Assembly (NCBI GenBank): GCA_943789275.1
Contig: CALSTM010000003.1
Span: 210,001-242,000 of the forward strand
DNA length: 32,000 bases
Direction: 5' to 3'
Origin: Candidatus Poseidoniaceae archaeon
GTDB taxonomy: Archaea; Thermoplasmatota; Poseidoniia; Poseidoniales; Poseidoniaceae
The notes under the pieces are model-generated. The model did not search any database, was not told the DNA's origin, and was given only the letters and a program-made list of their open reading frames with translations. Of this stretch, positions 7,279 through 29,501 are shown piece by piece; position 1 is the first letter of the stretch; every line of letters starts with the position of its first letter. The position numbers and the translations under genes were made by a program.

Positions 7279-7465
7279 GTGCTTGACTGTGAGGATTTAT
7301 TCCGATACCATGTCGTCCGGAAAAACTCGTTGCAACCCTTTGTACACCCATTAGTAAGCTTTTCACGCGTGGGTACCCATTCGTGAGATGCATGTGGGAT
7401 GGGTGTTGGGTGGGTATACAGTTTGCTTCAAGTAGGGTTTATCTACAGTTGCCAATGGTAAGGGT

Positions 7466-8713
7466 TTGATGCAGATGAACGACTCCTTTGAATTTAGATT
7501 AGGAGATTGTTTTTCAATTGGAAAAGAATTGGAAGACGAGAGCATTGATTGCATCATTACATCTCCTCCATATTGGAAACAAAGAGAATATGATGTAGAT
7601 GAAACAAAGATTGAGTTCTTGATTGGAATGGAAGAAAAACCTGAAGAGTATGTAGACCATTTAGTTAGAGTTTTGTCAATCTTGAAAAAGAAATTGAAAA
7701 GAGGAGGGTCATTGTGGCTAAATCTTGGTGACAAATATGTGAAAAAGAACCTCATGGGTATGCCGTGGAGAGTGGCAATAGCGTTGATGGATGATGGCTG
7801 GATCTTGAGGAACGATGTAATATGGCATCGAATGAAAGGAACACAGAGTGCAAAGGATAAACTTCGAGATAACCATGAATACATCTTTCATTTTGTCAAA
7901 AACAAGAAATATTTCTATGACTTAGATTCCATAAGAATAGAGAGAGATCAAAAACCAAAGATGAAAAATGGTAGAATCGTATCATCCACCGGTGTTTCTG
8001 GACAATCTTATTTCCGTAAGATTAAGAATTCAACAATATTAACCGACGAAGAAAAAGAGAATGCGACAAATGCCCTTAATCAAATGTTGGGACGCATGAA
8101 AGAAGGTAATATTGATGATTTCCGAATGTACATCAAGGGAGAACACCGAATCCTGCATAGTGATAAAGAACGAATCAGCGGAAGGGCACGTCAATTAAAT
8201 AGGGAAGGATTCTACTTCATGAGTAGTACTTCAAAGGGTAAAGTTCCATCGGACATTTGGTCTCATTCAGACAATGACATTTTCGAAAACGATGCTATTT
8301 GTGCATTTGCTGTTTTAAGATCAGGGGACCTTATTCCAGGTACTCTATGGAATATTACTCCTGAAGATGAATGGAGAAAAGATGCTCATTATGCAGTGTT
8401 CCCTACAGAATTACTACGCATCCCCATTTTGGCAACATGCCCTATAGATGGTGTTGTTTTGGATCCATTTATGGGTACTGGTAGTACTATTCTGGCAGCA
8501 GTAGAATTTGGTAGGAAAGGAATTGGTTTCGATATTAGCCAGAAATATCTAGATATCGCGCAATCTAGACTGATAAAGGTCAACGGGGCTGCCAAGGAAG
8601 AATATCTAGATTTGCCTTCAAAGACAATAGTACAACTGAAAGAACTACTCAAAAAAGCAGGTAAACCAGTTTCCGGTAAGAAGTCTGAACTAATTAAAAG
8701 ACTCAATCAGTGA
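7466..8713 (+). CDS. beta-class DNA methyltransferase (N4-cytosine or N6-adenine) with C-terminal SAP motif
   Basis: Catalytic motif IV DCIITSPPYW is near the N-terminus. The AdoMet motif I VLDPFMGTGSTILAA is near residue 335, the beta-class order. The last ~35 aa, LPSKTIVQLKELLKKAGKPVSGKKSELIKRLNQ, fit the SAP helix-extended-helix pattern. The likely ATG start is 7469. Local GC is low. Confidence 0.9.
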   Translation: MMQMNDSFEFRLGDCFSIGKELEDESIDCIITSPPYWKQREYDVDETKIEFLIGMEEKPEEYVDHLVRVLSILKKKLKRGGSLWLNLGDKYVKKNLMGMPWRVAIALMDDGWILRNDVIWHRMKGTQSAKDKLRDNHEYIFHFVKNKKYFYDLDSIRIERDQKPKMKNGRIVSSTGVSGQSYFRKIKNSTILTDEEKENATNALNQMLGRMKEGNIDDFRMYIKGEHRILHSDKERISGRARQLNREGFYFMSSTSKGKVPSDIWSHSDNDIFENDAICAFAVLRSGDLIPGTLWNITPEDEWRKDAHYAVFPTELLRIPILATCPIDGVVLDPFMGTGSTILAAVEFGRKGIGFDISQKYLDIAQSRLIKVNGAAKEEYLDLPSKTIVQLKELLKKAGKPVSGKKSELIKRLNQ

Positions 8714-8763
8714 ATTGTATAAATTGGCTAATACATAATTAACAACCCAGTCTTAGCGTTGAC

Positions 8764-9534
8764 ATGGTCAAGGTTCCAATTGAGTGGTTTGGTTGGAAAA
8801 TCCCGGCCTTTAGTTCAACGGAATCAACTATTGGTCAAGGAAATCAAACCTGCAGATTTACAAACAACTTGTGCTCAAAGCCTCGAAAATCAACTCCTGA
8901 AATTAGGACTGGAATTTGCTCAGTAAACATGACTGCAGGATTTTTTGAAGGAACTAGAAGAGTAATCATCTGTCCTAAGCGCTTTGAATTAGATAATTTC
9001 TTTTCAATGCTTTCACAAAGATACTTTGACGCCGATCACTCTGTAACATGGACTCCAGAAGTCAAGATTGGCAATTTTGGGAATATCGATTTCGTGGCAT
9101 CACACTCATTACCAAGGGATGAAGAAGCGGATGAATCTGATGAAATGGAAGATGAAGATGATGTGGATGATGAACCACAAATCGTTTTGTTCGAATTACA
9201 AGCCGGAGGTACCACGGGAAGCCCTTATCCAGCAATTGAAGATTTTATTGAGAATCAGAGTTTTTCACAGACCAGCTACAGTTTTTCCATTAATTGGGCG
9301 AATGAATTTATCAAAACTATGGGGCAACAGATCATCAAAAAGGGTCACGCAATTAATGGCTGGGGGGTTCCGATTGTATTTGTTATTCAAGACGTGGCCA
9401 TGGAATATATCGTGGACAAAATGAATACTGAAAATCTAACAGAGCGCCCCGTAGATGCAGAGTGGCCTGACGAGGAGTATATCACTTTAGAACTATCACG
9501 ATGGGAGATGGTGATGATTCAATGTTTTCTTTAG
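8764..9534 (+). CDS. NotI-family type II restriction endonuclease (main reading frame; probably frameshifted near its 3' end)
   Basis: The N-terminal Cys cluster CRFTNNLCSKPRKSTPEIRTGICSVN...IICPKRF resembles, from memory, the NotI metal-binding region (CPF...C...GVCVVN...LVCPNR). IDFV...VLFELQAGGTTGS matches the NotI catalytic D...E-x-Q block (FDW...VLEIQTMDFHGS). It lies 50 nt downstream of the methyltransferase. Confidence 0.65.
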   Translation: MVKVPIEWFGWKIPAFSSTESTIGQGNQTCRFTNNLCSKPRKSTPEIRTGICSVNMTAGFFEGTRRVIICPKRFELDNFFSMLSQRYFDADHSVTWTPEVKIGNFGNIDFVASHSLPRDEEADESDEMEDEDDVDDEPQIVLFELQAGGTTGSPYPAIEDFIENQSFSQTSYSFSINWANEFIKTMGQQIIKKGHAINGWGVPIVFVIQDVAMEYIVDKMNTENLTERPVDAEWPDEEYITLELSRWEMVMIQCFL

Positions 9535-9674
9535 AAGAGGGGTCTTTCTACACAGCAACCTTGGAGACAGCTGAGGCAATGCTGACTGTAGAAGGGTCCA
9601 TCCATTTAAATCAATTTTTATTAGACTTGGAAGGCCGAATGGAAAGGGCTGAAACCTTCACAGTTGACACATGA
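9501..9674 (+). pseudogene. out-of-frame continuation of the NotI-like endonuclease (57 codons)
   Basis: A second frame is open from 9471. Read from ATG 9501 it gives MGDGDDSMFSLEEGSFYTATLETAEAMLTVEGSIHLNQFLLDLEGRMERAETFTVDT. It overlaps the last 34 nt of the main frame and fills the otherwise empty gap up to the recombinase stop. The NotI-like main frame (256 aa) is short for the family. Confidence 0.4.
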
Positions 9675-9678
9675 AAAG

Positions 9679-10471
9679 TTATTTTCTTCGATGCCAGGGC
9701 TTGCCTCCCCACCAAGGGGGGTGCTGAAACTTCAATCTCTTCATATGGAAATCATTACTGATTGTTCTAGTTATGGAATTACCTTGCCACTTCCCCCCTC
9801 GCTTACCCTTGATACCTCGCTTGTTGAGTGACCTAGCCAAAGCGGCAGTAGCCATGCCATTTTCATTAATTTGCCATGCCATGTAGTCGATGCAGTCTTG
9901 CTCAGTCCAATTGGGAACAAACATGCCATTCTCATCAACATCCCACCCAAAGATTGACTTCGTGAATTGTTTGTTTGTTGCTCGAAGTTGATTCATGGCT
10001 TCTACTGTTCGTTCTGAAATCAATCCTCTTTCCATTTCAGCGAGGGCGCCCATCAGTGTTAGAAAAAATCGACCCATCGTGGTTGAAGTATCTACAGCCT
10101 CACCGTTCAAATCCACAATGTGTAGATTGATATTTGCATCATTAAGTTCATCGATTGTTATCAAAACGTCTGTCGTCAATCTGAACATCCTATCTAATTT
10201 CATCGTAATGAGGTCGCTGTATTGGCCTGTGCTCAATCTTCGTTTGAGTATTCGACCTTTCGGCCTATCCCACAGTGGAATACCTCCACTCACACCTTCT
10301 TCGATAATGATGTCATCTGGACTGAGGTTCAATTTCTTGTATCTTACATATTCGAGAATTCTTCTCTTCTGAGCTTGTATGCTCACACCTTCATCCACCT
10401 GCCTCTGTGATTGAAACTCGAATGTAGGCTACGCTTTTTGCTCGTTGGTTAGGTTGATTATTATGCAACAT
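9679..10471 (-). pseudogene. serine recombinase (resolvase/invertase catalytic domain plus partial Recombinase domain), interrupted by a 1-nt frameshift just after the catalytic Ser codon
   Basis: The main frame 9679-10398 contains VDEGVSIQAQKRRILEY...GRFFLTLMGALAEMERGLISERT and IFGWDVDENG. It lacks the AxYxRVS catalytic strand, and an in-frame TAG sits at 10429-10431. A different frame from ATG 10471 reads MLHNNQPNQRAKSVAYIRVS. Deleting the single base at 10411 joins it to SQRQVDEGVSIQAQ, giving the canonical RVSSxxQxxxGxSxxxQ spacing. Confidence 0.8.
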
Positions 10472-10492
10472 TTCTGAAGATTGTGATACTTT

Positions 10493-10500
10493 CTATTTAA
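10493..10500 (-). promoter_or_regulatory. TATA-like box (TTAAATAG) for the recombinase, flanked by a 7-bp inverted repeat
   Basis: TTAAATAG on the minus strand ends 21 nt upstream of ATG 10471, consistent with a leaderless archaeal start. TTGTGAT (10481-10487) and ATCACAA (10504-10510) bracket it. Confidence 0.35.
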
Positions 10501-10528
10501 TACATCACAACGTCGGAAATTTCACGCA

Positions 10529-10742
10529 GTTGGAACAATCAACCAATCGTTAATCATAATTGCACATGGGTTCAAGCAAATAACCCTTGAAACATGTTGA
10601 TTGATTTTCAACGGTATGTTTGAACCCCTGTTTGAACAATCAACCAATCGATTAGGATAGGTTGCAAGGGGTTATCCGAAACCCCATTCAACTTCCAAAT
10701 CCGGTTTGAAGGGGATGCAGTCGGTCTGTTGGGTTCGCTACC
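10529..10742 (+). repeat. left copy of a ~210-bp imperfect direct repeat (partner at 20033-20246)
   Basis: It aligns by eye with 20033-20246 along its whole length. The alignment is strongest in the right ~145 bp, e.g. TTGAACAATCAACCAATCGATT / TTGAACCATCAACCAATCAATT, TATCCGAAACCC and GGTCTGTT.G.TTCGCTACC. It contains a ~20-bp motif three times: direct at 10531-10550, inverted at 10587-10614 and direct at 10631-10652. Confidence 0.85.
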
Positions 10743-11051
10743 GTTCCAACCATATACAGTCGCAAGGGCCCGCTTCCAACTTTTTTAAATGTATTATATT
10801 CACGCTATCCATCCAATTACTCTTGAGTGAATGGGGGCGTTGCGATTGGCATGACAAAAGTGCCTTTATATTGAAAAAATGATATTTCTACTCAATAACC
10901 TAATACAAATAGATGAAGAATCATTCTGAGGGTGGCAATCAGGAAGACCATGCAAAAGATACGGCAGAAATAACATGTTCAAGACCAACTTTATGGGCAT
11001 TAACGTTCTAGGTTCGCGGGCTGTAGCAACCCTCTATGAGGTTCAGTAATA

Positions 11052-11069
11052 TCTTTTGATGTCAAAAGA
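11052..11069. other. perfect 8-bp-arm palindrome TCTTTTGA-TG-TCAAAAGA followed by a T-rich run
   Basis: Read directly from the sequence. It lies in the 800-bp non-coding stretch, and GTTTGTTTGTT follows on the plus strand. Confidence 0.5.
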
Positions 11070-11178
11070 GTTTGTTTGTTCATTAAGTATTAAGCCACAA
11101 CCGGTATATAAAGAGGTGTACCCTGCTGGCCTGGTGACTTTTGAGCGTTCAATAGAAATAGATTTATTTCAGAAACAC

Positions 11179-11196
11179 CAATTAAAATTTTAATTG
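11179..11196. other. perfect 18-bp AT-only palindrome CAATTAAAATTTTAATTG just downstream of the 982-aa gene stop
   Basis: Read directly. It lies 12 nt beyond the stop codon (11208-11210) on the minus strand. It could be a terminator-like or protein-binding element. Confidence 0.45.
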
Positions 11197-11207
11197 AATA
11201 AATACGA

Positions 11208-14156
11208 TCATTCATTTTCTTCACTATCCGAAAGGTAACCATCCTTTAATTGACCCCACAGAAGGGACATTGCTGGTTTATCTTGATGTGTATTGATGTC
11301 CCTAAAAGTCGTGCTTGAAACGATCGTTCGGCCATCAAACACCACAGGGAATAAAACCAATCGACTCCATAAAATCCATTCTCGATCTGTGGTTTTACGT
11401 ATACGTTGGAAGGCACGTTCGATTGTTTCTTGTGTATTTGGTAATGTATTCGCACTCCCCGAAGGTGCATCCTCGTCGAAAACATCCAAAACATCCATCA
11501 GTTCCTCGTATTCTTCCGGGGTAAGTTCGTATGGGCCTTCGAATTTATTTGATAGCGGAGTCTGGATGAACGAAGTCCAATCTTCATAATGAATACCTTC
11601 AAAATTAAGTCGGGTTCGAGACTTCTCTAGTATTGAGACCATTGAACACTCAGGGCCTCTTCTCGGCAATCCGTTTGAGAGAAGATATTCGAGATCTAAA
11701 TCTCCACGGATCAGTTCTTTATCGTGGCGGTCATCAAACTTCAATGGATTGAAATGGATACCAAGATGTCCCTTCTGTTTTATGAGTATTTTTAATCTTG
11801 ATAATATGTCATCATTAATCTCACATTGATGAAGTTCAGGATTATTTTCAAAATAAGTTGCCTCGCTCTTCAGCCATTCACTGTGCATGAACTTCAAGAG
11901 AACGCGAACCTGATCGATAACCAGGACACTGCTGTCCTGATAAGGTTGGCGAAGTGGCTGTTCAAGCAACAAACGTGCGATCTGTTCAACACGGGCCGTG
12001 AGCACATACAAACGTGCAAACGAGACCCTCAACATCTGGTCGACAAGTTGAGCCTTGTCGTACAATTTTGAATCACCATCGTGCTGCAACACCCTCATCG
12101 GTGCCTGAGCAGCTTCTTGGGCCGCATGAATGATATCGTGAATGTGAATCGATTTCAAAGAAGACGGAAATCCACTGGTATCCACTGAAGATTGCCTTGC
12201 AGCACGATCAAGTCGGTCCTCAATATTGAATGGTGCTTGGTCAGCGATGAGATGTTCGATCAAATTCATCGAAGTCGCAGCAAACATGAGCGGGTCCATT
12301 CTATTGACGCGGTTGACATTTTTTCGGGAAAGAATGTTCTTTTTCAATTGAGCCTTAGTGTCGGCTGGCTCAGGAAGACGATGGCTCACAAAGGGCTTGT
12401 TGTTGGGGTTGCCTTTCAAATGACCAATGGAAAATTGTGGACGGTTTTTGACTGCGCCGCTGACTTTCCATGTGCTGTTTTTTCCCTCGTGATTGAACAT
12501 TTTTTCTAAATTTCCAAAGTAGTTGTTTTCATCTGGTTCTTTCAAAATCAATTGCATGTACGCCATCAAAATTGATATCTGCGATTGGTTGATAGAAGAT
12601 TGAGGGAAATATTGCAAATGTTTGGATTTGTGATTCTCTTCCACGCCCCAAATCCAACGAGGCAGAAGTCCCACTTTGGAGGTGAACGGATTTAATTCTC
12701 TTGGATCACCAATCAAACGGATTAATCTCCCGAGGCCGGATGGGTTGCCTTGCGAGGCAGATCTATCAAACATGTCATTCATGGATGCTTTTCTGAAGAG
12801 TCCTCTGATTCTTGCTGGACAATCCCTTTCATCGTCCCATCCCATCTCGATGTACTCCTCTATCAGTTTCGATTTTTGTTGAAAGTCTTCAGCATCGTCT
12901 TGTGAGATTTCCCCCTCTTTTACTTCCTTCTCGAAGTAATTCGGTTTAGACATCTCTAGGAGAATCGCCGGAACAATATTTGAGAGAAGGATACCCCTAT
13001 CTTGTTTAAGCTTGGAAAGAACCATTTCCTTCATCCAAGCATCGGTTGTTGTGACGGAATCAACAGCTTCTGTTAACTTTTCATACAAATCAATTATCTC
13101 AGTCGAAAATTCCAATCGAAGGGTGAGTTGGTTGATCGGGGGGTTATCATCATCGCCATTCGTAGCCGTCTGATCTTTTTTATCAGTCTTGACAAAAGGC
13201 CTTGTTTCGTTGACAAGATTGTGGCACATCACGCGCAAGGTGCTTTCGATGTGAAGCACAGACGAGATGTGCAATTTTCCGGCAGAATCCCGAATAAAAC
13301 TCCTGATTGCATTGAAAATGTTCTTGAGTTTGTCCTTGTCCGAGTTCTGTTCAAACTCTTTTAATGTTTGAGACGCTGCATTCTTTGAATTGAGGGTGAT
13401 TCTTTTGGAAATTTCAAACAGGGCGCGTATCCATAATTCTGCTTCAGTGGCATCTGCTTCTGTACTTGGTTGAATTTCGCTAAACAACAACGGACTGAAC
13501 GAAATTAAACCCTTGACATCCTCTGGCATGAATGCCTTTTCGTGGATTTTCAATTTCGAACCTTGCTTCGCCAGCATCAACGCTGGAGCGATCAAACCTC
13601 TTGCCCTCAACACCAATGTAGATTCATAGATGACCGCAATTTCCCACCAATTGACTGCAGATTCGGATTTGTTTTCTCGAATGATGGCATACCCCTTGTT
13701 GACGACAAAATTCGTTAATTCTTGATTGACTCGACAGTAGTCGCTAAGTTCATGCTGTGTGATTGTCGTTTTTTGGCCGGCGAGGGCTTCGGCACTGAGT
13801 TTACCGTTGAATGCGGTATTGATGCGGGCTATGATCCGGCGAAGGAGACAGATGTCATGCCATAGTTGAAAGGTTTTTTTTGAATGTTCAGCGTTATTCC
13901 ATTCCGAAACTTTGCGAATCGTTTCTTTGCTTAACTCAAGAAGTTCTCTTGTAAGTCGTTCAATTCGTGCTTTGGGCCGGTTGTGCACTGGTCCATTTGA
14001 TGAAGGTAGAACGCCATGTATGCAATCAACGATTGCGCTTGTAAGTGCGTTTGCTTCAAACAATACTGTGTGCGATTCACGGCCCATCATGTCCACTCTC
14101 ATGACGCCACATAACGTGAGTATATTTAAGCATGTTATGGTTGCATTCTCAAACAC
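11208..14156 (-). CDS. large hypothetical protein (982 aa in the longest frame), no recognisable domain; divergent partner of the NERD/SbcCD-like operon
   Basis: This is a long uninterrupted ORF in a low-GC stretch. I see no Walker A, nuclease or methylase motif, and the composition looks mostly alpha-helical. The likely true start is ATG 14102 (MRVDMMGRESH...), because a TATA-like box sits 18 nt upstream of it. Confidence 0.8.
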   Translation of the reverse strand: MFENATITCLNILTLCGVMRVDMMGRESHTVLFEANALTSAIVDCIHGVLPSSNGPVHNRPKARIERLTRELLELSKETIRKVSEWNNAEHSKKTFQLWHDICLLRRIIARINTAFNGKLSAEALAGQKTTITQHELSDYCRVNQELTNFVVNKGYAIIRENKSESAVNWWEIAVIYESTLVLRARGLIAPALMLAKQGSKLKIHEKAFMPEDVKGLISFSPLLFSEIQPSTEADATEAELWIRALFEISKRITLNSKNAASQTLKEFEQNSDKDKLKNIFNAIRSFIRDSAGKLHISSVLHIESTLRVMCHNLVNETRPFVKTDKKDQTATNGDDDNPPINQLTLRLEFSTEIIDLYEKLTEAVDSVTTTDAWMKEMVLSKLKQDRGILLSNIVPAILLEMSKPNYFEKEVKEGEISQDDAEDFQQKSKLIEEYIEMGWDDERDCPARIRGLFRKASMNDMFDRSASQGNPSGLGRLIRLIGDPRELNPFTSKVGLLPRWIWGVEENHKSKHLQYFPQSSINQSQISILMAYMQLILKEPDENNYFGNLEKMFNHEGKNSTWKVSGAVKNRPQFSIGHLKGNPNNKPFVSHRLPEPADTKAQLKKNILSRKNVNRVNRMDPLMFAATSMNLIEHLIADQAPFNIEDRLDRAARQSSVDTSGFPSSLKSIHIHDIIHAAQEAAQAPMRVLQHDGDSKLYDKAQLVDQMLRVSFARLYVLTARVEQIARLLLEQPLRQPYQDSSVLVIDQVRVLLKFMHSEWLKSEATYFENNPELHQCEINDDILSRLKILIKQKGHLGIHFNPLKFDDRHDKELIRGDLDLEYLLSNGLPRRGPECSMVSILEKSRTRLNFEGIHYEDWTSFIQTPLSNKFEGPYELTPEEYEELMDVLDVFDEDAPSGSANTLPNTQETIERAFQRIRKTTDREWILWSRLVLFPVVFDGRTIVSSTTFRDINTHQDKPAMSLLWGQLKDGYLSDSEENE
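14121..14129 (-). promoter_or_regulatory. TATA-like box TTAAATATA for the 982-aa gene
   Basis: On the minus strand, TTAAATATA is followed by 18 nt and then ATG 14102. This spacing fits an archaeal leaderless transcript. Confidence 0.4.
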
Positions 14157-14268
14157 ATTAAGGTTGCATCTGCGCTCAGATTTAGAAAGTCATAAACGAA
14201 AAAATCAATGCTAAGGATTGAAAATATGTTAGCACAGGTTTCATTAACTGGGACCAATTGGCAAACTC

Positions 14269-14892
14269 GTGCGAACACAGTCAGAGTTCAGAAAGCTTCG
14301 TCGAGAAATGGCGCCTTACGTGGAAGTCATTGCAAAAATTGGTGCAACTACGGTCAAATCGATCTTCGATGATGTGTGGAACAAAGAGGAAAAGGATATC
14401 GGATTCGAAGAAGACGATGCTTGGATGTCTCGATTTCTTGCAAAAATGGTCATTGATGATCTCATCGAAGACCAAGAGCAGTCCCGAACCCCCAAAGACG
14501 TTACACTTCTACATCAAAACATAGTGGAATCGATGGCGACTGTATTGCTTCAATGCCTCAAAACTCGAGCGATCATCGTTGAAGGCTATGTTCCATCGAT
14601 GACGACAGAATACGTGGTCTCTGAGTTCGTGAAGATGGCTATCAATGATTCAAATCTGGACCGCGCTATAATTGCATGGCGCTTATTGGAGGATCTTTCG
14701 ATGAGCTTTGGGCCAGCTATGCGGCGGTTAGCTCCTATTTTTACGTTAGCCAGGGAAGAAGTATCGGAATCCAAGGATCCTTCCTATGGTACGTTTGTTT
14801 TGATCGCAAATCTCACAGATCGCAGGATTGATCAAATGATTCTGAGGAAAATCGCGGCTGACGATACGGAAGAAGGGTGGTGGTGCGCATGA
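14269..14892 (+). CDS. hypothetical acidic helical protein, first gene of the operon
   Basis: 207-aa ORF with a GTG start at 14269 and an alternative ATG at 14308. Its stop overlaps the next gene's start as ATGA. No motif recognised. Confidence 0.65.
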   Translation: MRTQSEFRKLRREMAPYVEVIAKIGATTVKSIFDDVWNKEEKDIGFEEDDAWMSRFLAKMVIDDLIEDQEQSRTPKDVTLLHQNIVESMATVLLQCLKTRAIIVEGYVPSMTTEYVVSEFVKMAINDSNLDRAIIAWRLLEDLSMSFGPAMRRLAPIFTLAREEVSESKDPSYGTFVLIANLTDRRIDQMILRKIAADDTEEGWWCA

Positions 14893-16166
14893 TGAACATT
14901 TTCACAAATATTGGATGGTATCTCAGGGCTTCTAAAGAACGGAAAAAGCCATCCGATGGAATGCGCATTGCTGCTGAGAAGGCCGAGCTGGACGTCTTGG
15001 ACGCAATCGAGGAGATGCCCGGGGTCATTTCGGCTTGGCATGCGATCAGAATTCAAGATCCCACTCGCCGAATTGGTGCGGGCGAAGTCGATGTTATGGC
15101 CTTAACGAACAAGGGATTCGTTTGCATTGAAGTCAAGCACTGGACAGGAGCGGTTCAAATGATGGATGGAGACATTGTTCAAGAGAAGTTGCAAAAGAAA
15201 CGCCCTGTTTTTGAACCCCTCGAGAAGAAGGCCGTACATCTCAAGCGATGTGCTCAAACCCTGATTCAGGATGATGCGCTCGAGGTAATTACGCTCGTCG
15301 TTTTGACAAACCCTAATGCGAAAGCCAGTCATGATGTCTTGCAACACCCCAGAGTAGCGACGTTGAAGTCCCTCTCCGAGAAAATCAATCGCGGGTTCAG
15401 CGACCACGAACCGCTCAGCACCCACACACTGAACAATTACACTCAACTAGCCGCTTGTTTCGGCACTTGGGATTCGCTGGGATATGAAGGAGGCGCAACG
15501 CACATCGGCGATTTTGATGATCAGTTGATGCCACAAGAGTGGAGCAGAGACAAATATCAAGACATCGAGATTTCTATCGCTCATGGATTTTGGAAAACCA
15601 TTTTCTCAGGCCCGAAACTATCGATCCGCCTCACGGGCTGGGATGGCAAGGTAACGGTGGAGAACCTCACTCCGCCACTGCTCATCAAACACACCTCACC
15701 ATGGGAGAACGGTGGGATTGACAACAAGGGACATTATCCTGTCTCTTATCTTCGAACCATAACTTATGGTTTCCAGTACGACGCTTTTGGAGAGCATCAC
15801 GCACGGCGACTCGAGATGAACCTTCAATATCCGACAGAAGAACCATCCATCAGTCTTGGCAAAGAAGTACATTTGAAGCGCAAACACAACGATGCTGGGC
15901 GCCCACCGAGGATCGACTATTCGCAAAAATTCTCACCGGGGAGTCGTCACAAAGGCACCATTGTCAGGCATCTCAAAGACGAGGATGGCAACGTTTACGC
16001 GATGCTTGTGGCACTCGTTGAGCGGAAGGTCAAAGGACGGATTCGAATCCGCGACTTAGACGCTGTTCATCCAGACCTTTTCGATAGGGCTTATGGCGTT
16101 GGGACCCCGCTGGACGTGAGGATTAAAAGCTATACAAGCCCAAAGAAGATCGACCTACACATCTAA
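14889..16166 (+). CDS. NERD-domain (PD-(D/E)xK-like) nuclease with a tentative C-terminal S1/OB-like domain
   Basis: The NERD pattern is GEVDVMALTNKGFVCIEVKHWTG with flanking AEKAELDVLDAI and PLEKKAVHLKR. The C-terminal ~80 aa, GSRHKGTIVRHL...GNVYAMLVAL...KGRIRIRDLD...GTPLDVRIKSY...KIDL, resembles an S1 fold. ATG 14889 overlaps the upstream stop; the track start is 14877. Confidence 0.8.
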   Translation: MMNIFTNIGWYLRASKERKKPSDGMRIAAEKAELDVLDAIEEMPGVISAWHAIRIQDPTRRIGAGEVDVMALTNKGFVCIEVKHWTGAVQMMDGDIVQEKLQKKRPVFEPLEKKAVHLKRCAQTLIQDDALEVITLVVLTNPNAKASHDVLQHPRVATLKSLSEKINRGFSDHEPLSTHTLNNYTQLAACFGTWDSLGYEGGATHIGDFDDQLMPQEWSRDKYQDIEISIAHGFWKTIFSGPKLSIRLTGWDGKVTVENLTPPLLIKHTSPWENGGIDNKGHYPVSYLRTITYGFQYDAFGEHHARRLEMNLQYPTEEPSISLGKEVHLKRKHNDAGRPPRIDYSQKFSPGSRHKGTIVRHLKDEDGNVYAMLVALVERKVKGRIRIRDLDAVHPDLFDRAYGVGTPLDVRIKSYTSPKKIDLHI

Positions 16167-16167
16167 T

Positions 16168-16284
16168 ATGGAAGTGAAAAATATGAACATGAATAAAGAA
16201 ACAGAAGAAGCGAACATGGGGATTCCTCGGAAACCCCATGCGATTTTGACGACCTTGATATATAGTGGGCAGGGGGTTTGTTGA
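16168..16284 (+). CDS. possible 38-aa micro-ORF bridging the NERD and phosphoesterase genes
   Basis: ATG 16168 lies 1 nt after the NERD gene's TAA. It translates as MEVKNMNMNKETEEANMGIPRKPHAILTTLIYSGQGVC. Its TGA (16282-16284) overlaps ATG 16284 of the next gene as TGATG. It is below the 60-aa track cutoff. Confidence 0.3.
   Translation: MEVKNMNMNKETEEANMGIPRKPHAILTTLIYSGQGVC
16215..16240 (+). other. hairpin CATGGGG-(12 nt)-CCCCATG carrying the GGGG..TCC..GAAACCCC motif also present in both flanking repeats
   Basis: A 7-bp perfect stem read directly. The related motif occurs at 10668-10685 (GGGGTTATCCGAAACCCC) and 20175-20191 (GGGGGTATCCGAAACCC). Confidence 0.5.
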
Positions 16285-17414
16285 TGAGCATCAAGATTCT
16301 CGCAACCGGCGATTTTCAGTTGGATAAGACGTTTGGAACGCTTGGCGAATACGCAGGAGCCTTCCGCCAGCAACTTATGGCCACCTTCAAGCACGTGATG
16401 CTTGAAAGCACCAAAGATCATGACATCGTCCTCATTGCTGGAGACCTTTTTGACCGAATGGGAACGCCGATTCACATCATTCAAGAGGTCGCTGAAACTC
16501 TTGCAAAATGCCCGATTACGTGCGTCGTCCTCCCTGGAAACCACGATCCTGTCATCAGCGGAATCCCGAAGGCATTGAGCGAGGCTCTGAAAGCCAAGAA
16601 TGCAAGTCACGTCCATGTGGCGTTGAAGCGTGAGCCAATCCATTTCGAAGCGCTTGGAATGACATTGTATCCGGCGCCGCTCTTTCGTAAGGATGACATC
16701 TCAAACCAATACGCTTGGATTCCAGCGCGAAAAGATGGAGATGGGTTACGCGTAGCCCTCATGCACGGAGCTCTTACCACCCTGCCGAACGGGCTGATTC
16801 CTGAAGATGTCGCCAATCAGATGGACCTCGACCTCGTAATTTGCGGAGATCAACACGGTCCTTTATCGGGAGATTCTGAGGCTTCACCACTGTTTAACCT
16901 TGCAACTTCGAAAGCTCGTCGCTTGTATTACGCAATGGCTCCCGAGGCACAAAACATCAGTCAGAACTTCACGGGAAGCGTTCTGAGTCTTGAGGTGGAC
17001 GATGCTCATGCAGTCATGGATGCATCGAGAATCGATGTCGGCGTCTTGCGCTTTGTAAACGGCAGCGTAAACTTCGCTGGTGAGAGCGACATTGAGGGGC
17101 AACTTGCTCCATTCTTCGAACCGTACAACGAGCAGCAGCCTGGACTGGTAAGTCTTCGGCTTGAACTCACAGGCGAAATCACACGCGATGAGTCGGTTGC
17201 ACTGCAGGCTCAACTGGAAAACCTTCGGCAGCAATGGCCGCTTCTCGATGTGAAGAATCTGGTTGCCGTTCCTCAGGAGGATGCTGAACTCGCAGGTCCT
17301 GAAAACCCCCTCCAAACAATGATCCAAGATGCCCTTCATGCTTCTGATGCTTCTGAAGAAATACGAGCCAAAGTCATTGAGTTGCTACCAATTATCATCG
17401 GGAGGTGCGACTAA
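16284..17414 (+). CDS. SbcD/Mre11/YhaO-like calcineurin-type metallophosphoesterase with non-canonical motifs I and VI
   Basis: Motifs in order are ATGDFQLD (canonical DxH), AGDLFD (GDxxD), LPGNHD (GNHD), LMHGA (H) and CGDQHG (canonical GHxH). The C-terminal LRLELTGEI region is like the SbcD/YhaO capping domain. The stop overlaps the next start as TAATG. Confidence 0.8.
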   Translation: MSIKILATGDFQLDKTFGTLGEYAGAFRQQLMATFKHVMLESTKDHDIVLIAGDLFDRMGTPIHIIQEVAETLAKCPITCVVLPGNHDPVISGIPKALSEALKAKNASHVHVALKREPIHFEALGMTLYPAPLFRKDDISNQYAWIPARKDGDGLRVALMHGALTTLPNGLIPEDVANQMDLDLVICGDQHGPLSGDSEASPLFNLATSKARRLYYAMAPEAQNISQNFTGSVLSLEVDDAHAVMDASRIDVGVLRFVNGSVNFAGESDIEGQLAPFFEPYNEQQPGLVSLRLELTGEITRDESVALQAQLENLRQQWPLLDVKNLVAVPQEDAELAGPENPLQTMIQDALHASDASEEIRAKVIELLPIIIGRCD

Positions 17415-20023
17415 TGCTCAAAAATATCGAACAATTAATTGTCCGAGACATCCGAAAATGGGACGGTGAACACACGTTCGATTTCCATGAGGGAGTCACT
17501 GTTCTTCACGGCCAAAACGGACGGGGCAAGACGACTCTAAACACTGCGTTAATGCTCACACTCGTGTTTTCTGCCAATTCGAACGGACTTCAGCAGGATC
17601 TCACACCTCGAAATGGTGGATCCCCGCGGTCCAGTGTGATTTTCTCGACACAAGATGGACGGCGATTCAGAATCAGCAAAACATGGGGCGACAGAAACCA
17701 ATCTCGTCTTTTCGATGCCGACACAAATGAAGAACTTGCACGTGGAGGGGACGCCGAAGATCAAACTCGAGAATTGGCCTTCGGAATTCCGCCATCCAGC
17801 GGCCGGTACAGCGCCAGAAATGGGTTGGTCGCTAATCTCGAGCAAACGATCGAAAACTACGTTGCAACCCTCTCCTTCTATTCACAGGGGAGCCTCCATA
17901 TCGCCCCAAAAATGGGCGAGGCCCTAAGAAACATTGGCCTCGTAGCGGACGAAGCAGAACGAGCACGAGGCTTTACTGCAATCAGTCTTGTGGCCAAAAC
18001 TGAGTCTCAAGGACTCATTTCGGGAGTGACAAACGCAGGGTTGCCAAGGGCAAATGCAACTGGGAGAGTAATCAATCAGCAGAAGGTGCTCGATAACATC
18101 CGTGCTGAAATTCAGCAAGCTCGCGAAACCGAAGCAGACTTGATCGAGGCTGAATCAAATCTGTTTGTAATGACGGATGAGGTTGACGAGGACATCAATG
18201 AAGAAACTCGGCAACAGAAAGCGGATTTGATTCGAGGCTTTACTCAAGATGCGGCCAATCACCGGGCAGAGCGGGAAGCAGCACGCGTCCTTCATGATCA
18301 ATCAAAGGAAACCCATGACCCACTCAAAGTCATGAACGATGAGCGGAAGCGACTCATCAAAACCGCCCGCGATGATGCGAAGAGTTTGAGAGGTCTCGGG
18401 CAAAAGGAGAACCATGCTCGAGAAAAGTTCGAACAGTCAGAAGCGTTACATGCGTTGAAGTTACAAGAGAAAGACACTCATTCTTTAGAACTTGAAAACA
18501 TCAAACTCTGGCAACTCTACCTCACTCAAGAAGAGCGGAATCAAGAACAAAGGGTTGCACTCGGCAAAGCCATTGAACATCGTAACAACCACGAGGAAGG
18601 GCTCGTATACCAGGCAACGCTCCAACAGCAACGAGATCATCTCCAGTTAGCGAGTGACGAACAGTGGACAAAAATCAAGGATTATGATGCACAAATTGCT
18701 GCTGCAAAGGCAGAAAGGACCATGAAGATCAAGATCGGAACACTCCCAAAGAATTGGGTTGTCGAAGGCGATGGCTTGCCCCTCCAAGAGGATGGTTCAG
18801 CTTCAGAAAGCATCGAAGTCCGGGACAAAGACGGCATGGTTTTGGAAGTGCGGCAAGCCATGGATGGTGCGTCACCCACCGAACTTGAACTCTTGAAAAA
18901 TGAAGTGCTTGGAGAACTAAAGGCTACATCAACAAGTGAGCTCCGCCAACGGCAAGACGAAGCAACTCGGTTAAAAACTGAAATTGATGTAAGCAAGCGA
19001 TCGTTGGCAATGCTTCCTCTGACCACTGAACTCGATGCCATCATCGCCGAGCTCAAGGCCAAAATCGAAACAGAAGTGACGCAACCAGACCTTCCACTGC
19101 CTGAAGGAGACTTGCGCGATGAAGGTGTCCGTATTACTGAACGGGTACGGCTCGCAGAAAAGGCGCTGGAAGCCGTTCGTGAAGCACGGACACAGGCGCA
19201 AGCTGATTACATCACCTCGAACACAAGGCTCGTCGATGCGACAACCGTATGGAATGAAATTCTTTCAACGCTGGAGGAGCATCGTACCACCTACGGGACT
19301 GACGAGGATGTAGCTCAACAATTAACTCAAGCATCTCAAGACTTAGAAACAAAGGCTGCGGTGTGGAATGGATTTGTTGAAAATAAGGAACTACGGGAGG
19401 ATGCACCCGAAAAGAAGGCAACAAATCTCCAGCGATCACTCGACGCTTATGATCAACAACGGAACGGACTGATTCGCCTTCAAGAGCGAGTGGTTCTGTT
19501 GAGAAGCAACCCTCTCTTACAACGTCTTCCGGATTTGGAAGCAGCACTCCATGTTGAGGCCGATGAGTTGGCACGGCTCCAATTGGAATACGAAGCATAC
19601 GACTTGATTCAGAAATTAGCGGAGCAAGCTGGCGTGGCTGCTCAACAACTCGCTCGCAATGAAACTACAGAACGAATGCACCGTTTGCTGAACTATGTCT
19701 GGGGAGTGGATGCTGACTTGACCTTTGCCGAGGACGGTGCACCCATTCAAACCCGCCAAATAAACATCAAAGATGAATCGCATGGAACCAAGGAGCAACT
19801 CCAAACAATTCTTCGCTTGGTACTGCTTTCAACCGCAGCAGAGAATGGTACAACGATGCTGCTGGATGATGCGCTTGTCTTCTCCGATGATGGGCGATTA
19901 AACAGAATGAAGGATGTGCTCCAGGTCGAGAGCAACGCCGGTATGCAATTGATCATCTTCACATGTCGGCCGGAGGATTACGTAGACATCGCTGATGAAA
20001 TCATCAATCTGGACGACTTTTGA
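17414..20023 (+). CDS. SbcC/Rad50/YhaN-like coiled-coil ABC-type ATPase lacking a zinc hook
   Basis: Walker A is GQNGRGKTT. Long heptad-like Glu/Gln/Arg/Lys-rich arms follow. The C-terminal signature-like sequence is SHGTKEQLQTILRL, and Walker B/D-loop is TMLLDDALVFSD. GGAGGTG lies 9 nt upstream of ATG 17414; the track start is 17405. Confidence 0.85.
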   Translation: MLKNIEQLIVRDIRKWDGEHTFDFHEGVTVLHGQNGRGKTTLNTALMLTLVFSANSNGLQQDLTPRNGGSPRSSVIFSTQDGRRFRISKTWGDRNQSRLFDADTNEELARGGDAEDQTRELAFGIPPSSGRYSARNGLVANLEQTIENYVATLSFYSQGSLHIAPKMGEALRNIGLVADEAERARGFTAISLVAKTESQGLISGVTNAGLPRANATGRVINQQKVLDNIRAEIQQARETEADLIEAESNLFVMTDEVDEDINEETRQQKADLIRGFTQDAANHRAEREAARVLHDQSKETHDPLKVMNDERKRLIKTARDDAKSLRGLGQKENHAREKFEQSEALHALKLQEKDTHSLELENIKLWQLYLTQEERNQEQRVALGKAIEHRNNHEEGLVYQATLQQQRDHLQLASDEQWTKIKDYDAQIAAAKAERTMKIKIGTLPKNWVVEGDGLPLQEDGSASESIEVRDKDGMVLEVRQAMDGASPTELELLKNEVLGELKATSTSELRQRQDEATRLKTEIDVSKRSLAMLPLTTELDAIIAELKAKIETEVTQPDLPLPEGDLRDEGVRITERVRLAEKALEAVREARTQAQADYITSNTRLVDATTVWNEILSTLEEHRTTYGTDEDVAQQLTQASQDLETKAAVWNGFVENKELREDAPEKKATNLQRSLDAYDQQRNGLIRLQERVVLLRSNPLLQRLPDLEAALHVEADELARLQLEYEAYDLIQKLAEQAGVAAQQLARNETTERMHRLLNYVWGVDADLTFAEDGAPIQTRQINIKDESHGTKEQLQTILRLVLLSTAAENGTTMLLDDALVFSDDGRLNRMKDVLQVESNAGMQLIIFTCRPEDYVDIADEIINLDDF

Positions 20024-20032
20024 GGCAAAACC

Positions 20033-20246
20033 TCTTGTTACATCCACCAACCAATTAATCTCCATGATTTCGAATGGGTTTTTGCACCGACCCCATCGAA
20101 CAGATTGATTGGTTTGAACGGTGTGAAAATTCACCATGTTGAACCATCAACCAATCAATTCGGATGCGTTGGAAGGGGGTATCCGAAACCCTATCCAACT
20201 GGAAAAGTCGTTGGAAGGGTTTTCAGTGGGTCTGTTTGTTCGCTAC
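20033..20246 (+). repeat. right copy of the ~210-bp imperfect direct repeat (partner at 10529-10742)
   Basis: It begins ~10 nt after the ATPase stop and ends 7 nt before the stop codon of the convergent aconitase-family gene. The motif copies lie at 20041-20060 (direct), 20097-20121 (inverted) and 20138-20160 (direct). Confidence 0.85.
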
Positions 20247-20253
20247 CCTCTGC

Positions 20254-28843: not shown

Positions 28844-28946
28844 GACTGTTGCACCGGTTCACGGACCATGAATCCAACGCTTTGTTGCAACCGTATCGGG
28901 AGAAGTATTGATGAATCGCGCCCTGCATGGAAGGTTAGGTGAGCCG

Positions 28947-29501
28947 ATGGCTGCAAAGGGAGATTCGAAGATTGAGAAATTAACCGCACTACCAGGAATT
29001 GGTGCTGCGACGGCAAAGAAATTAGTGTCTGCAAAGATCGATACGGTCTCCAAAGTGGCTTCCGCAGGCTCTAAAAAACTCCAAGAAGTTGGCCTTAGTG
29101 CAGCGGTTGCGACCAAGATTAGTGCTGCTGCCAAGGCCGCAGATAAAGCGTCAAGCGCAGCAAAGAAGGCGACCTCAAAAGCCAAGTCTGCTGCAAAGAC
29201 TTCTGCCAAGAAATCCACATCTGCAGCTAAATCTGCTGTTTCGAAATCGAAGTCGGCAGCGAAAAAAGCGTCCTCAAAGGCCAAGTCTGCAACCAAATCC
29301 TCGGCCAAGAAATCCTCCGCTGCGGCGAAATCCGCCGTATCGAAGTCGAAGTCGGTCGCCAAGCAAGCCGTTGAGAAGGTAACGGCTCAATCAACAGAGA
29401 ACCACACGGTTAAATCCACGAAATCCTCAGACGGCCGTAAAGGTGGCACCTTGCGTATTCCACGCAGCGTCAAGGACATGCCTTGGTTCAAAAAGAAGTG
29501 A
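28947..29501 (+). CDS. helix-hairpin-helix DNA-binding protein with a Lys/Ala/Ser-rich histone-H1-like tail
   Basis: The HhH motif is LTALPGIGAATAKKLVSAKI. About 90 aa of AAK/SAK/KKA low complexity follow, including a 33-aa tandem duplication. GGTGA lies 5 nt upstream of ATG 28947; the track start is 28908. Confidence 0.75.
   Translation: MAAKGDSKIEKLTALPGIGAATAKKLVSAKIDTVSKVASAGSKKLQEVGLSAAVATKISAAAKAADKASSAAKKATSKAKSAAKTSAKKSTSAAKSAVSKSKSAAKKASSKAKSATKSSAKKSSAAAKSAVSKSKSVAKQAVEKVTAQSTENHTVKSTKSSDGRKGGTLRIPRSVKDMPWFKKK
29178..29375 (+). repeat. 2 x 99-bp in-frame tandem repeat inside the HhH/Lys-rich gene
   Basis: Unit 1 is KAKSAAKTSAKKSTSAAKSAVSKSKSAAKKASS (29178-29276). Unit 2 is KAKSATKSSAKKSSAAAKSAVSKSKSVAKQAVE (29277-29375). 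Confidence 0.85.

Follow-up and report, generated by a model that had tools for sequence, protein, structure and literature searches.

Organization of the island and of its two repeats

The window, by which we mean the whole stretch of 32,000 nucleotides that was analysed, belongs to a Marine Group II archaeon and carries an island delimited by two TA dinucleotides, at 7374-7375 and 20244-20245. From these borders, it holds two cassettes, at 7376-10738 and 10741-20243, and one repeat ends each of them. The left border (7358-7391) is a near-palindrome, TCACGCGTGGG-TA-CCCATTCGTGA; the window is the same as contig L094 up to this TA and diverges from it right after, where the G+C content falls. 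Scans with Pfam, PADLOC and NCBIfam showed that cassette 1 contains an N6/N4 DNA methyltransferase gene (7466-8713, plus strand), an ORF of 256 aa without assignment (8764-9534, plus strand) and a small serine recombinase gene on the minus strand (9679-10471), and ends in the first repeat, copy A. The TA at 10739-10740 is the putative crossover at the junction of the two cassettes; conservation of the repeat family stops there, and the recombinase-containing module is bounded at this point in at least 13 contexts. Cassette 2 begins with the arm CCGTTCCAAC, ends in copy B, and contains a 982-aa ORF (minus strand), a 207-aa ORF and genes for a NERD-domain protein, an SbcD-like phosphoesterase and an SbcC/Rad50-like ATPase (plus strand). 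The TA at 20244-20245 would be the crossover between island and chromosome, and eight other contigs with an identical aconitase diverge exactly here. It is followed by a chromosomal arm, CCCTCTGCTCA (20246-20256), which is identical in nine strains and overlaps the stop codon of the aconitase-family gene (20254-22242, minus strand). The same scans found no Tn3-type transposase, replication or partition gene in the island. Exact-protein look-ups for four ORFs of the window returned no record of the same cassettes elsewhere, and the right part of cassette 2 recurs in three contigs (L004, L031 and L041) with three different right flanks.

Copy A (10529-10740) and copy B (20033-20245) align over their full length, as the original prediction had described from the sequence alone; they are in direct orientation, and the gaps are few. 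Their global alignment has 158 identical columns out of 222 (71%), while composition-preserving (mononucleotide) shuffles averaged 50% and never exceeded 54%; the longest block without gaps spans 62 nt, with 85% identity. The two inner blocks that had been reported, GGGG..TCCGAAACCC and GGTCTGTT.G.TTCGCTACC, were seen in both copies, and the ends assigned to copy A, GTTGGAAC (10529-10536) and GTTCCAAC (10743-10750), are indeed reverse complements. The copies were thus located where the prediction had placed them, but their functional ends are the TAs at 10739-10740 (A) and 20244-20245 (B): the final CC of the copies as first drawn, and GTTCCAAC, are past the boundary of family conservation and inside the next segment.

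The motif ATCAACCAATC is present in exact form at 10538, 10639 and 20146, and in degenerate or inverted form at 10597-10614, 20042-20056 and 20103-20113. This direct, inverted and direct pattern reflects two tandem units of about 100 nt, the first a degenerate copy of the second. In copy A, the proximal unit (10529-10629, plus strand), which holds the first two motif sites, precedes with a 101-bp period the distal core unit (10630-10738, plus strand; match to the core HMM at 10627-10740, E=3e-26). In copy B, the proximal unit (20033-20135, plus strand) begins 10 bp past the stop codon of the SbcC-like gene and itself matches the core HMM at 20035-20124 with a score of 18.9; the distal unit (20136-20243, plus strand) matches it at 20138-20245 with E=7e-34. 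The covariation counts and the core alignment defined two inverted repeats in each distal unit. In copy A, H1 pairs 10652-10658 with 10674-10680 and H2 pairs 10682-10692 with 10704-10714, and the terminal arm GGTC..GGGTTCGC occupies 10723-10738. In copy B, H1 pairs 20159-20165 with 20181-20187, H2 pairs 20189-20199 with 20210-20219, and the terminal arm GGGTCTGTTTGTTCGC occupies 20228-20243.

The serine recombinase and its module

The recombinase gene of cassette 1 matches the Pfam Resolvase family (E=4e-23). Alignment with the intact proteins of L002 and L003 placed its start codon at 10471, not at 10398, and frame analysis showed a +1 frameshift at about 10411-10417, directly past the catalytic-serine motif AYIRVS, so any activity at this locus would have to come in trans. 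Intact relatives have 255-269 aa; in the intact family protein of 265 aa, the Resolvase domain (PF00239) starts at residue 13. In Foldseek searches, an AF2 model matched two integrases, Bxb1 and PhiC31, but only in the catalytic and recombinase domains. By this modelled fold, the protein, which has no zinc-ribbon/coiled-coil domain, looks more like a large serine recombinase in truncated form than like a gamma-delta/Tn3 resolvase. The closest NCBIfam models of the window recombinase are CcrB, XisF and CcrC.

The 57-bp spacer between the gene and copy A (10472-10528) contains a TATA-like box, TATTTAATA (10494-10502), read from the sequence. About 24-28 bp lie between this probable promoter and the recombinase ATG, and about 27 bp between it and the element; the same spacer geometry was found in L002/L003 and in L102-L104. 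The link between the element and a serine recombinase, which the original prediction had drawn from a single locus, was supported: besides the window, 16 of the 93 loci scanned have the recombinase start codon about 57 bp from the start of the element, the two being divergent and the TATA box common to both. Together, they make up a module of about 1,046 bp that is bounded on both sides and has at least 13 different right flanks. Its left border is C-TA-TGCCAAGG in 8 of 13 cases, while GA or TG replaces TA in the other 5. A second recombinase subfamily, with 64% identity, has the same layout and a different element variant, which also ends in SSS-TA. The module has no TnpB-like ORF.

The recombinase gene was present in 20 of 105 loci, and most copies of the element have none in the DNA fetched. 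The recombinase family has more than 1,000 members in marine metagenomes. Viral contigs contained neither the element nor close relatives of the recombinase, only generic serine recombinases with 35-38% identity.

Distribution and anatomy of the element

Exact-pattern scans located the element in four Poseidoniales genome contigs and 89 marine metagenome stretches, and an HMM built from the alignment of diverse units found 167 copies in 102 of 105 loci. Each copy consists of one or two tandem units of about 100 bp. Comparison of the 70 unique sequences among the collected copies showed that only the distal ~104 nt are kept throughout the family, nearly gap-free, while the proximal half is common to a subset. 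The three ~20-bp ATCAACCAATC motifs, which had been put forward as binding-site-like elements, are not what is conserved.

The distal unit has a rigid layout with fixed spacing. H1 is TTCGGAT-N15-ATCCGAA, and H2 is an inverted repeat clamped by GGG/CCC, with a variable stem. Conservation then ends abruptly with GGGTC-N8-WCGC followed by TA (GTTCGC-TA). Downstream of the TA, 67 distinct flanks were found, and these have in common only TA-S-S-S-W and a GGG at +26 to +28.

Cassette borders and a possible passive repeat

The aconitase site showed how the distal end of the element behaves at island borders. In nine strains whose aconitase proteins are identical, the islands differ, with GmrSD, a Type ISP enzyme, restriction-modification systems and transporters among their contents, and all of these islands are joined to the chromosome at TA|CCCTCTGCTCAG. 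In all nine, the breakpoint is at the TA located 8 bp past the stop codon, the putative exchange point. The site of the element has a further ~90-190 bp that are conserved. An element variant was recognisable left of the TA at six of the nine junctions, while L097, L098 and L099 have only ..SGS-TA. In L094, the same two TAs that enclose the 12.9-kb island of the window enclose a single cassette of 730 bp, so that this is a near-empty site.

Several chromosomal hotspots are in use, and similar borders were found at other loci. Segments of 921 bp (L008/L071) and 1,132 bp (L019/L080) are common to contigs with different flanks, and both have SS-TA-SS on each side. A unit made of an ORF and an element occurs three times in a row in L087, all co-oriented, and L046 has a cassette of 522 bp with an ORF of 59 aa. 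The element is at one end of each cassette only, the other end having just SSSW beside the TA. Tail-to-tail junctions were also found, such as GGGTCTGTTTGTTCGC-TA-GCGTCTGTATCGACCC, which is a dyad centred on TA. As judged from these alignments, the breaks support a site-specific crossover at the distal end of the element. In L102-L104, a few bases beside the TA differ among otherwise near-identical elements, so the exchange point is not pinned to the base.

The same borders could be left by a passive repeat, that is, a MITE-like transposon end moved by an unlinked enzyme (a TA-targeting DDE transposase, for example) or a portable patch of homology through which islands are exchanged by homologous recombination, its linkage to the recombinase being incidental. 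There are many copies per genome, most of them without a nearby recombinase; contigs often break 70-250 bp past the element, and most recombinase genes were found on contigs of ~1 kb, which is what a repeat would give. Elements of the IS630/Tc1 type typically have TA flanks, and the TA at both cassette ends is compatible with either a MITE/DDE or a recombinase model. However, terminal inverted repeats are absent, the element being confined to one cassette end, and the island ORFs that were scanned gave no transposase domain. No enzyme but the serine recombinase recurs; its distance from the element is fixed, and its two subfamilies go with different element variants. Nor would homologous recombination fuse unrelated island ends to one chromosomal base again and again. 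We therefore regard a passive repeat as improbable.

Covariation of the inverted repeats and the question of an RNA

RNAalifold was applied to the two copies of the window and then to 66 near-identical cores; the structures were unconvincing because there was too little sequence variation, and diverse variants were collected afterwards. The resulting 47 diverse units align almost gap-free. The covariation that the original prediction had proposed to look for was found in this set: H1 and H2 were 84% paired, against 23-53% when the partner strand was slid, and the covariation score was 0.195, against 0.089 in shuffles, none of 500 shuffles reaching 0.195. Ten pairs of H1 and H2 showed changes on both sides, and the loop lengths were invariant over divergent variants.

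A structured non-coding RNA could account for these helices, either as an outward transcript running from the TATA box into the variable flank (a guide or scaffold, like omega/right-end or bridge RNAs) or as a 3'-UTR element of the cassette genes. It would agree with the covariation of H1 and H2, with a possible pseudoknot pair (36-47) that switches from GC in 27 sequences to UA in 8, with the TATA-like box ~27 bp upstream of copy A and of the recombinase-linked copies, and with the 7-30 bp that separate many copies from a co-oriented ORF ahead of them. Right-end guide RNAs, too, have as their signature a conserved scaffold with an abrupt end in front of variable sequence, and sequences folded singly exceeded shuffles in stability to some extent (z from -1.5 to -2.6), with a slight advantage of the plus strand for whole copies.

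Other results speak against an RNA. H1 and H2 contained 20 G.T and 33 A.C mispairs, which shows no strand bias, and the minus strand folded better in the H2 region of 55 of 72 units. Rfam gave no match at gathering thresholds and, at E<=10, only chance-level miRNA-type matches with E>1, and ARAGORN detected no tRNA or tmRNA. Downstream oligo-T terminators were not enriched (5 of 62 flanks, against a background of 14%). Most copies have unrelated 5' flanks with no promoter-like box, the TATA box is placed for a leaderless recombinase mRNA, and invariant loop lengths fit helical phasing of DNA better. We know of no RNA-guided enzyme of the Resolvase family. These results lead us to lean towards a role as DNA, and make a structured RNA an unlikely explanation.

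We give very little credence to the narrower idea that the module provides the recombinase with a guide RNA. The H2 sequence is not strictly linked to the terminal arm or flank, since L029 joins one H2 type to the other terminal arm. Pairing of the upstream arm GTTGGAAGGGG with CCCCATCCAAC beyond the GGGG/CCCC clamp was also rejected, as it showed no covariation with the H2 variants; the clamp pair itself is ambiguous.

The element as a probable recombination site

Our preferred reading is that the ~210-bp repeat is probably a recombination-site module that ends each mobile cassette of a serine-recombinase system of Poseidoniales (Marine Group II). It would be an att/res-like site at whose TA crossover takes place, in a cassette system of the integron or SCC kind, and we consider this interpretation, too, to be the probable one. 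The element is present in multiple copies, most of them with no recombinase gene nearby, and ends unrelated cassettes, which points to an attC/att-like cassette end rather than a private res site.

The serine recombinase would be the catalyst of this system. It may bind a site consisting of the terminal arm, the TA and a weakly conserved opposite arm (TA-SSSW...), bring two such arm-TA-arm sites together and swap their strands at the TA. A circular cassette would be inserted by recombining with a site on the chromosome or with one already resident, whereas the direct copies A and B, by recombining with each other, would release 10741-20245 as a circle. The circle of cassette 2 would then have the junction GGGTCTGTTTGTTCGC-TA-CCGTTCCAACC, and the deletion product would have the arm of copy A joined to TA-CCCTCTGCTCAG. 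Two direct copies 9.5 kb apart are the geometry for resolvase-type excision. The self-complementarity of TA also allows tail-to-tail and head-to-head joining, and junctions of both types were observed. The internal inverted repeats may serve as accessory architecture, like res subsites or attP arms, perhaps as extruded hairpins.

Serine recombinases use duplex sites with conserved half-site sequences, while the arms here are barely conserved beyond WSSS-TA-SSSW. To our knowledge, covarying, sequence-variable inverted repeats have no precedent as accessory sites of a serine recombinase, and recognition by shape is not a known substrate type for these enzymes. More tentatively, the system could be an integron equivalent of Archaea that relies on a small serine recombinase, with cassettes of which many carry defence genes and with variable, strictly paired and spaced inverted repeats recognised by their shape as extruded hairpins. 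The unit of recombinase and site would then itself be a mobile module of about 1 kb.

A classical res site, which would resolve cointegrates or multimers of a Tn3-like transposon or integrated plasmid with copy B as the second res, is hardly credible: the site is directly upstream of the recombinase gene, beside its promoter, contains several inverted repeats with different spacings and has A and B in direct orientation, but there are no transposase, replication or partition genes, the recombinase is unlike a ~185-aa resolvase with a C-terminal helix-turn-helix, no 12-bp motif common to H1, H2 and the terminal arm could be seen by eye, hundreds of copies end unrelated single-gene cassettes, and homology is lost where the element has its far end, with a new partner each time, whereas a res would be inside a constant transposon. 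What stands of the res-like site first proposed is a recombinase site whose direct repeats can excise 9.5 kb; the layout of three subsites with a shared 12-bp motif does not, and the Tn3 transposase is absent.

Comparison with known systems

Full-text searches of the searchable literature returned no description of this system. It is similar to SCC/SCCmec in that serine-recombinase cassettes are inserted in tandem at one site, at the 3' end of a housekeeping gene, in arrays that are bounded by short repeated site sequences and whose cargo includes restriction-modification and defence genes; the window recombinase also gave NCBIfam matches to CcrB, XisF and CcrC. It differs from SCC by its archaeal host, by a recombinase of ~265 aa without zinc-ribbon/coiled-coil, by a rigidly spaced module of ~104-210 bp with covarying inverted repeats, by many cassettes with a single small ORF and by the use of several hotspots. 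Large serine recombinases that use att sites have more than 400 aa and three domains (catalytic, recombinase and zinc-ribbon/coiled-coil), whereas the members of this family have 255-269 aa. Their sites are simple, of ~40-50 bp, and strands are exchanged at the dinucleotide in the centre, with integration where a conserved gene ends; here the breakpoints are just past the aconitase stop codon, and the site includes the further ~90-190 bp of conserved sequence.

Similarities with integrons are a recombinase gene that is divergent from and beside a primary site, variable downstream content (at least 13 flanks), co-oriented arrays of an ORF plus a site (L087, L046), structured sites of variable sequence and defence cargo. 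However, IntI is a tyrosine recombinase, while the only recombinase here belongs to the Resolvase family PF00239. Exchange is apparently at a TA at the end of the module and not at G|TT, the breaks being located ~26 nt past the boxes, and the recombinase gene is inside the possibly mobile ~1-kb module. The attC boxes RYYYAAC/GTTRRRY fit only the commonest H2 stem (ATCCAAC/GTTGGA) and not the other variants, and we consider this match to be coincidental.

The res sites of Tn3/gamma-delta and of Sin/beta share with the element a multi-part site beside the recombinase gene and its promoter, a crossover far from the gene, a palindromic A/T-rich central dinucleotide and direct repeats that would give a deletion. 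The element differs from them by the lack of three subsites with a common motif, by the lack of a transposon or plasmid context, by another recombinase architecture and by dispersed copies with changing partners. As in the system proposed here, Tn4451 (TnpX), Tn5397 (TndX) and IS607 have the recombinase gene inside the mobile element, a circular intermediate in which the joined ends are the active site, and weak target needs beyond the central dinucleotide. TnpX and TndX are large proteins. In the TnpA of IS607, which is often accompanied by tnpB, a MerR-like helix-turn-helix at the N terminus precedes the catalytic domain; in the recombinase described here, the latter is itself N-terminal. 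None of these three systems has a structured end module of ~104 bp or single-gene cassettes mobilised in trans.

Significance for Poseidoniales

In the Poseidoniales, which are uncultured, the element marks the borders of hypervariable islands, precise to the base, and the islands that it borders carry restriction-modification systems, GmrSD, a Type ISP enzyme, SbcCD/NERD and Mks-like systems. Its ~104-nt core is a marker for island borders and cassettes in fragmented metagenomes, and explains the breaks of assemblies at these positions. The recombinase and its site are candidates for use as a compact tool in recombination. Should the recombinase be the catalyst, Archaea would have an exchange platform of the integron/SCC kind that combines a minimal serine recombinase with an unusually elaborate structured site. 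On the more tentative integron-like reading, it could be a main source of strain-level variation in gene content in one of the most abundant archaeal groups of the ocean.

Structure and family of the repeat

The two copies of the repeat, A (10529-10742) and B (20033-20246), lie in direct orientation and could be aligned end to end. The global alignment showed 71% identity (158 of 222 columns), while shuffled versions of copy B gave a mean of 50% and a maximum of 54% against copy A, which bears out the full-length duplication of the original prediction. The top ungapped block reached 85% identity across 62 nt. The predicted motif ATCAACCAATC, the block GGGG..TCCGAAACCC and the pair GGTCTGTT..GTTCGCTACC were each found as described.

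A search with a pattern of the distal half recovered 89 marine metagenome stretches (70 unique sequences), and only the distal ~104-110 nt were conserved in all 70. The predicted motif sites are present in the window, but sites 1 and 2 fall in the proximal half, which is common to a subset of the family only. With a broader profile, 102 of the 105 loci fetched for comparison yielded 167 copies in total. Exact-pattern matches in genomes all belonged to Candidatus Poseidoniales (Marine Group II), and the window itself is archaeal, since it encodes TFB and topoisomerase VI. The profile of the distal ~104-nt unit (the core) also matched the proximal half weakly (20035-20124), so the 210-bp element consists of two tandem ~100-nt units, and this accounts for the direct, inverted and direct arrangement of the motif.

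Conservation of the family stops abruptly at GTTCGC-TA (TA at 10739-10740 and 20244-20245 in the window). Past this terminal TA, the 67 distinct flanks had nothing in common but TA-S-S-S-W and, at +26 to +28, a GGG. In divergent variants the terminal arm differs (GGGTC-GATACAGA-CGC-TA, for example); these variants are often placed tail-to-tail with a main-type copy, the TA being the dyad centre. Many cassettes open with their own CCS-stem-loop-stem-GGG inverted repeat immediately past the TA (window 10741-10780; L027, L081 and L016), often followed ~28 nt on by GGG-TA, GGG-TG, or GGGG|CCCC with the first arm repeated.

Probable maintenance of the core at the DNA level

The 47 diverse core units gave an almost gap-free alignment, so all spacings in the core are fixed. 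Two inverted repeats lie inside it: H1 (TTCGGAT-N15-ATCCGAA), with compensatory variants such as TTAGG/CCTAA and TTTGG/CCAAA, and H2 (CCC(C)-stem-11 nt-stem-GGG), whose stem variants include ATCCAAC/GTTGGA, TTTGTAT/ATACAAA, ATGCGAAT/ATTGCAT and CTTGTG/CACAAG. The cells of H1 and H2 were paired in 84% of cases, compared with 23-53% for slid partners, and ten base pairs showed changes on both sides. The covariation score was 0.195 against 0.089 for shuffles, and none of 500 shuffles reached 0.195.

Maintenance of H1 and H2 by compensatory change would also fit an RNA role, but this role is poorly supported. The two types of mispair were about equally frequent (20 G.T and 33 A.C), neither strand was singled out by a comparison of folding energies, T-runs were not enriched downstream of the element, and most copies had no promoter-like box. 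For these reasons we read the pairing, or dyad symmetry, of H1 and H2 as upheld at the level of DNA and not of an RNA gene. Searches of the repeat against Rfam found no family, even at E<=10, and those for tRNA and tmRNA found none.

The repeat is linked to a serine recombinase

The recombinase gene of the window lies on the minus strand between a 256-aa ORF and copy A, and its true start is at 10471. Set against intact relatives of 265 aa, the gene has a one-base insertion directly after the catalytic AYIRVS motif (10405-10420, minus strand), where the window reads TCAATCAC and the relatives TCATCAC or TCTTCAC. The insertion splits the ORF into MLHNNQPNQRAKSVAYIRVS... and ...SQRQVDEGVSIQAQ..., and is either a true pseudogene mutation or an assembly indel. 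The predicted structure of the recombinase (pLDDT 73.5) matched the Bxb1 and PhiC31 integrases over the catalytic and recombinase domains, without the zinc-ribbon/coiled-coil part, and the nearest NCBIfam models by sequence were CcrB, XisF and CcrC.

The start codon was found ~57 bp from the start of the element, in divergent orientation and with a TATA-like box between the two, in 16 loci and in the window. Pairwise comparisons showed that gene and element form a discrete module of ~1,046-1,050 bp, sharply delimited at either end. On the right the module stops at the TA; on the left it stops shortly after the conserved codons run out, and this border has the sequence C-TA-TGCCAAGG in 8 of 13 cases. 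Three pairs of loci (L005 and L065, L003 and L015, L038 and L044) share left flank and module but have differing right flanks; content therefore changes at the distal end of the element.

In a subfamily of recombinases with only 64% identity, the equivalent divergent position is occupied by another element variant, which also ends in SSS-TA. One recombinase of this subfamily adjoins the riboflavin operon in a 2.04-Mb contig (ERZ28548095 contig_6994), and downstream of it (L102, 6782-12774) ~10 small ORFs (38-157 aa) that match no family look like a cassette array. In L103, a recombinase of this type lies beside MksE/MksF-like and PIN genes.

Assemblies of Poseidoniales metagenomes are systematically broken by the element: about one third of the contigs oriented on it (L005-L093) stop 70-250 bp past its TA, and the recombinase family, whose members number more than 1,000 and measure 255-269 aa, occurs mainly on ~1-kb contigs, as a repeat that breaks assemblies should.

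Breakpoints and cassettes

An exactly identical aconitase-family protein was found in eight further contigs, with eight different gene sets downstream. The nine sequences are identical from TA|CCCTCTGCTCAG on and unrelated before it; differing element variants lie left of this TA, with only ..SGS-TA in 3 of the 9. The gap between the MFS transporter and aconitase genes (L094-L101; window 7375-20245) is a hypervariable hotspot, with nine different contents in nine strains. Its contents include a helicase-methylase restriction system, AspBHI/Mrr and Type ISP enzymes, GmrSD, a phosphate ABC transporter and dehydrogenases, among others. L094 is near-empty: after the MFS transporter gene come TCACGCGTGGG-TA, a single 730-bp cassette (a 156-aa ORF and one element) and TA-CCCTCTGCTCAG. 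The window matches L094 up to the TA at 7374-7375 and diverges immediately after; low G+C begins near 7300. The island of the window thus runs from one TA to another, and a third TA (10739-10740) divides it into two cassettes, both closed by a single repeat copy.

In cassette 1 (7376-10738), an N6/N4 DNA methyltransferase that has a SAP domain at its C-terminus is followed by the 256-aa ORF, which has no family match (7466-9534); together they probably make up a restriction-modification system. The same recombinase module adjoins a C5 methylase and an NgoFVII-type endonuclease in L002. Cassette 2 (10741-20243) encodes, at 11208-20023, proteins of 982 aa and 207 aa for which the family search gave no match, a NERD protein, an SbcD-like phosphoesterase and an SbcC/Rad50-like ATPase with weak matches only, to the PtuA, GajA and LmuB ATPases. 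Together these may form an undescribed defence system. Copy B begins 10 bp past the stop codon of this ATPase and ends 8 bp from that of the convergent aconitase-family gene. Elsewhere in the window, a 33-nt tandem repeat (29157-29354) inside an ORF at 28908-29501 (plus strand) encodes a lysine/alanine/serine-rich stretch (..SAAKKATSKAKSAAKTSAKKSTSAAKSAVSKSKS..) resembling a histone-H1/Hc1-like basic protein.

L087 contains three successive, co-oriented ORF-element units, and L046 a 522-bp cassette (59-aa ORF) flanked by two direct copies. Segments of 921 bp (L008 and L071) and 1,132 bp (L019 and L080) recur in different surroundings with SS-TA-SS at both borders. Three further loci (L004, L031 and L041) contain the window's SbcCD-type cassette, each with another neighbour on the right. 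An inverted element pair with 3' ends inward surrounds a 13.9-kb segment (L007, with the element at 516-626, and L014/L033), and two outward-facing inverted copies surround the recombinase and 3.3 kb in L033. The system may thus be able to invert segments as well.

Relation to known systems and proposed mechanism

The system resembles integrons in that the recombinase adjoins a primary site and in its arrays of ORF plus site, but there is no IntI, there are no attC boxes and exchange is not at G|TT, so we rejected membership of this class. It resembles SCC elements in its serine recombinase and in having cassettes in tandem at a housekeeping gene's 3' end, but membership was rejected here too, as the recombinase lacks the C-terminal domains of large serine recombinases. 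Tn3-type res, IS607 and MITE assignments were rejected, the defining features of each being missing. Full-text searches, which cover the literature in part, turned up no account of a comparable system, either in Poseidoniales or in other archaea.

We propose that the repeat is a site module closing each cassette. The crossover site would comprise three parts, a terminal arm (GGGTC-N8-WCGC), the TA and a weakly conserved far arm (SSSW...) supplied by the adjoining DNA, with H1 and H2 at fixed spacing as a putative accessory architecture. The linked recombinase, as the presumed catalyst, would bring two such sites together in a synapse, with strand exchange at the TA. In this way a circular cassette could enter a resident site, and the DNA between direct repeats, such as A and B, could be excised. 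The data show the anatomy of the element, its linkage, the breakpoints and the covariation, while the catalyst, the precise point of exchange and what the accessory part does are inferred. Since TA is palindromic, tail-to-tail and head-to-head joins should also arise; both types were observed.

The original prediction of a Tn3/gamma-delta-like res site upstream of the recombinase holds in part: the repeat is a recombinase-linked recombination-site module, but not a private res site. This structured module is dispersed and gives the borders of cassettes to the base, and such a marker in a very abundant marine archaeon is of more interest than a private res site.
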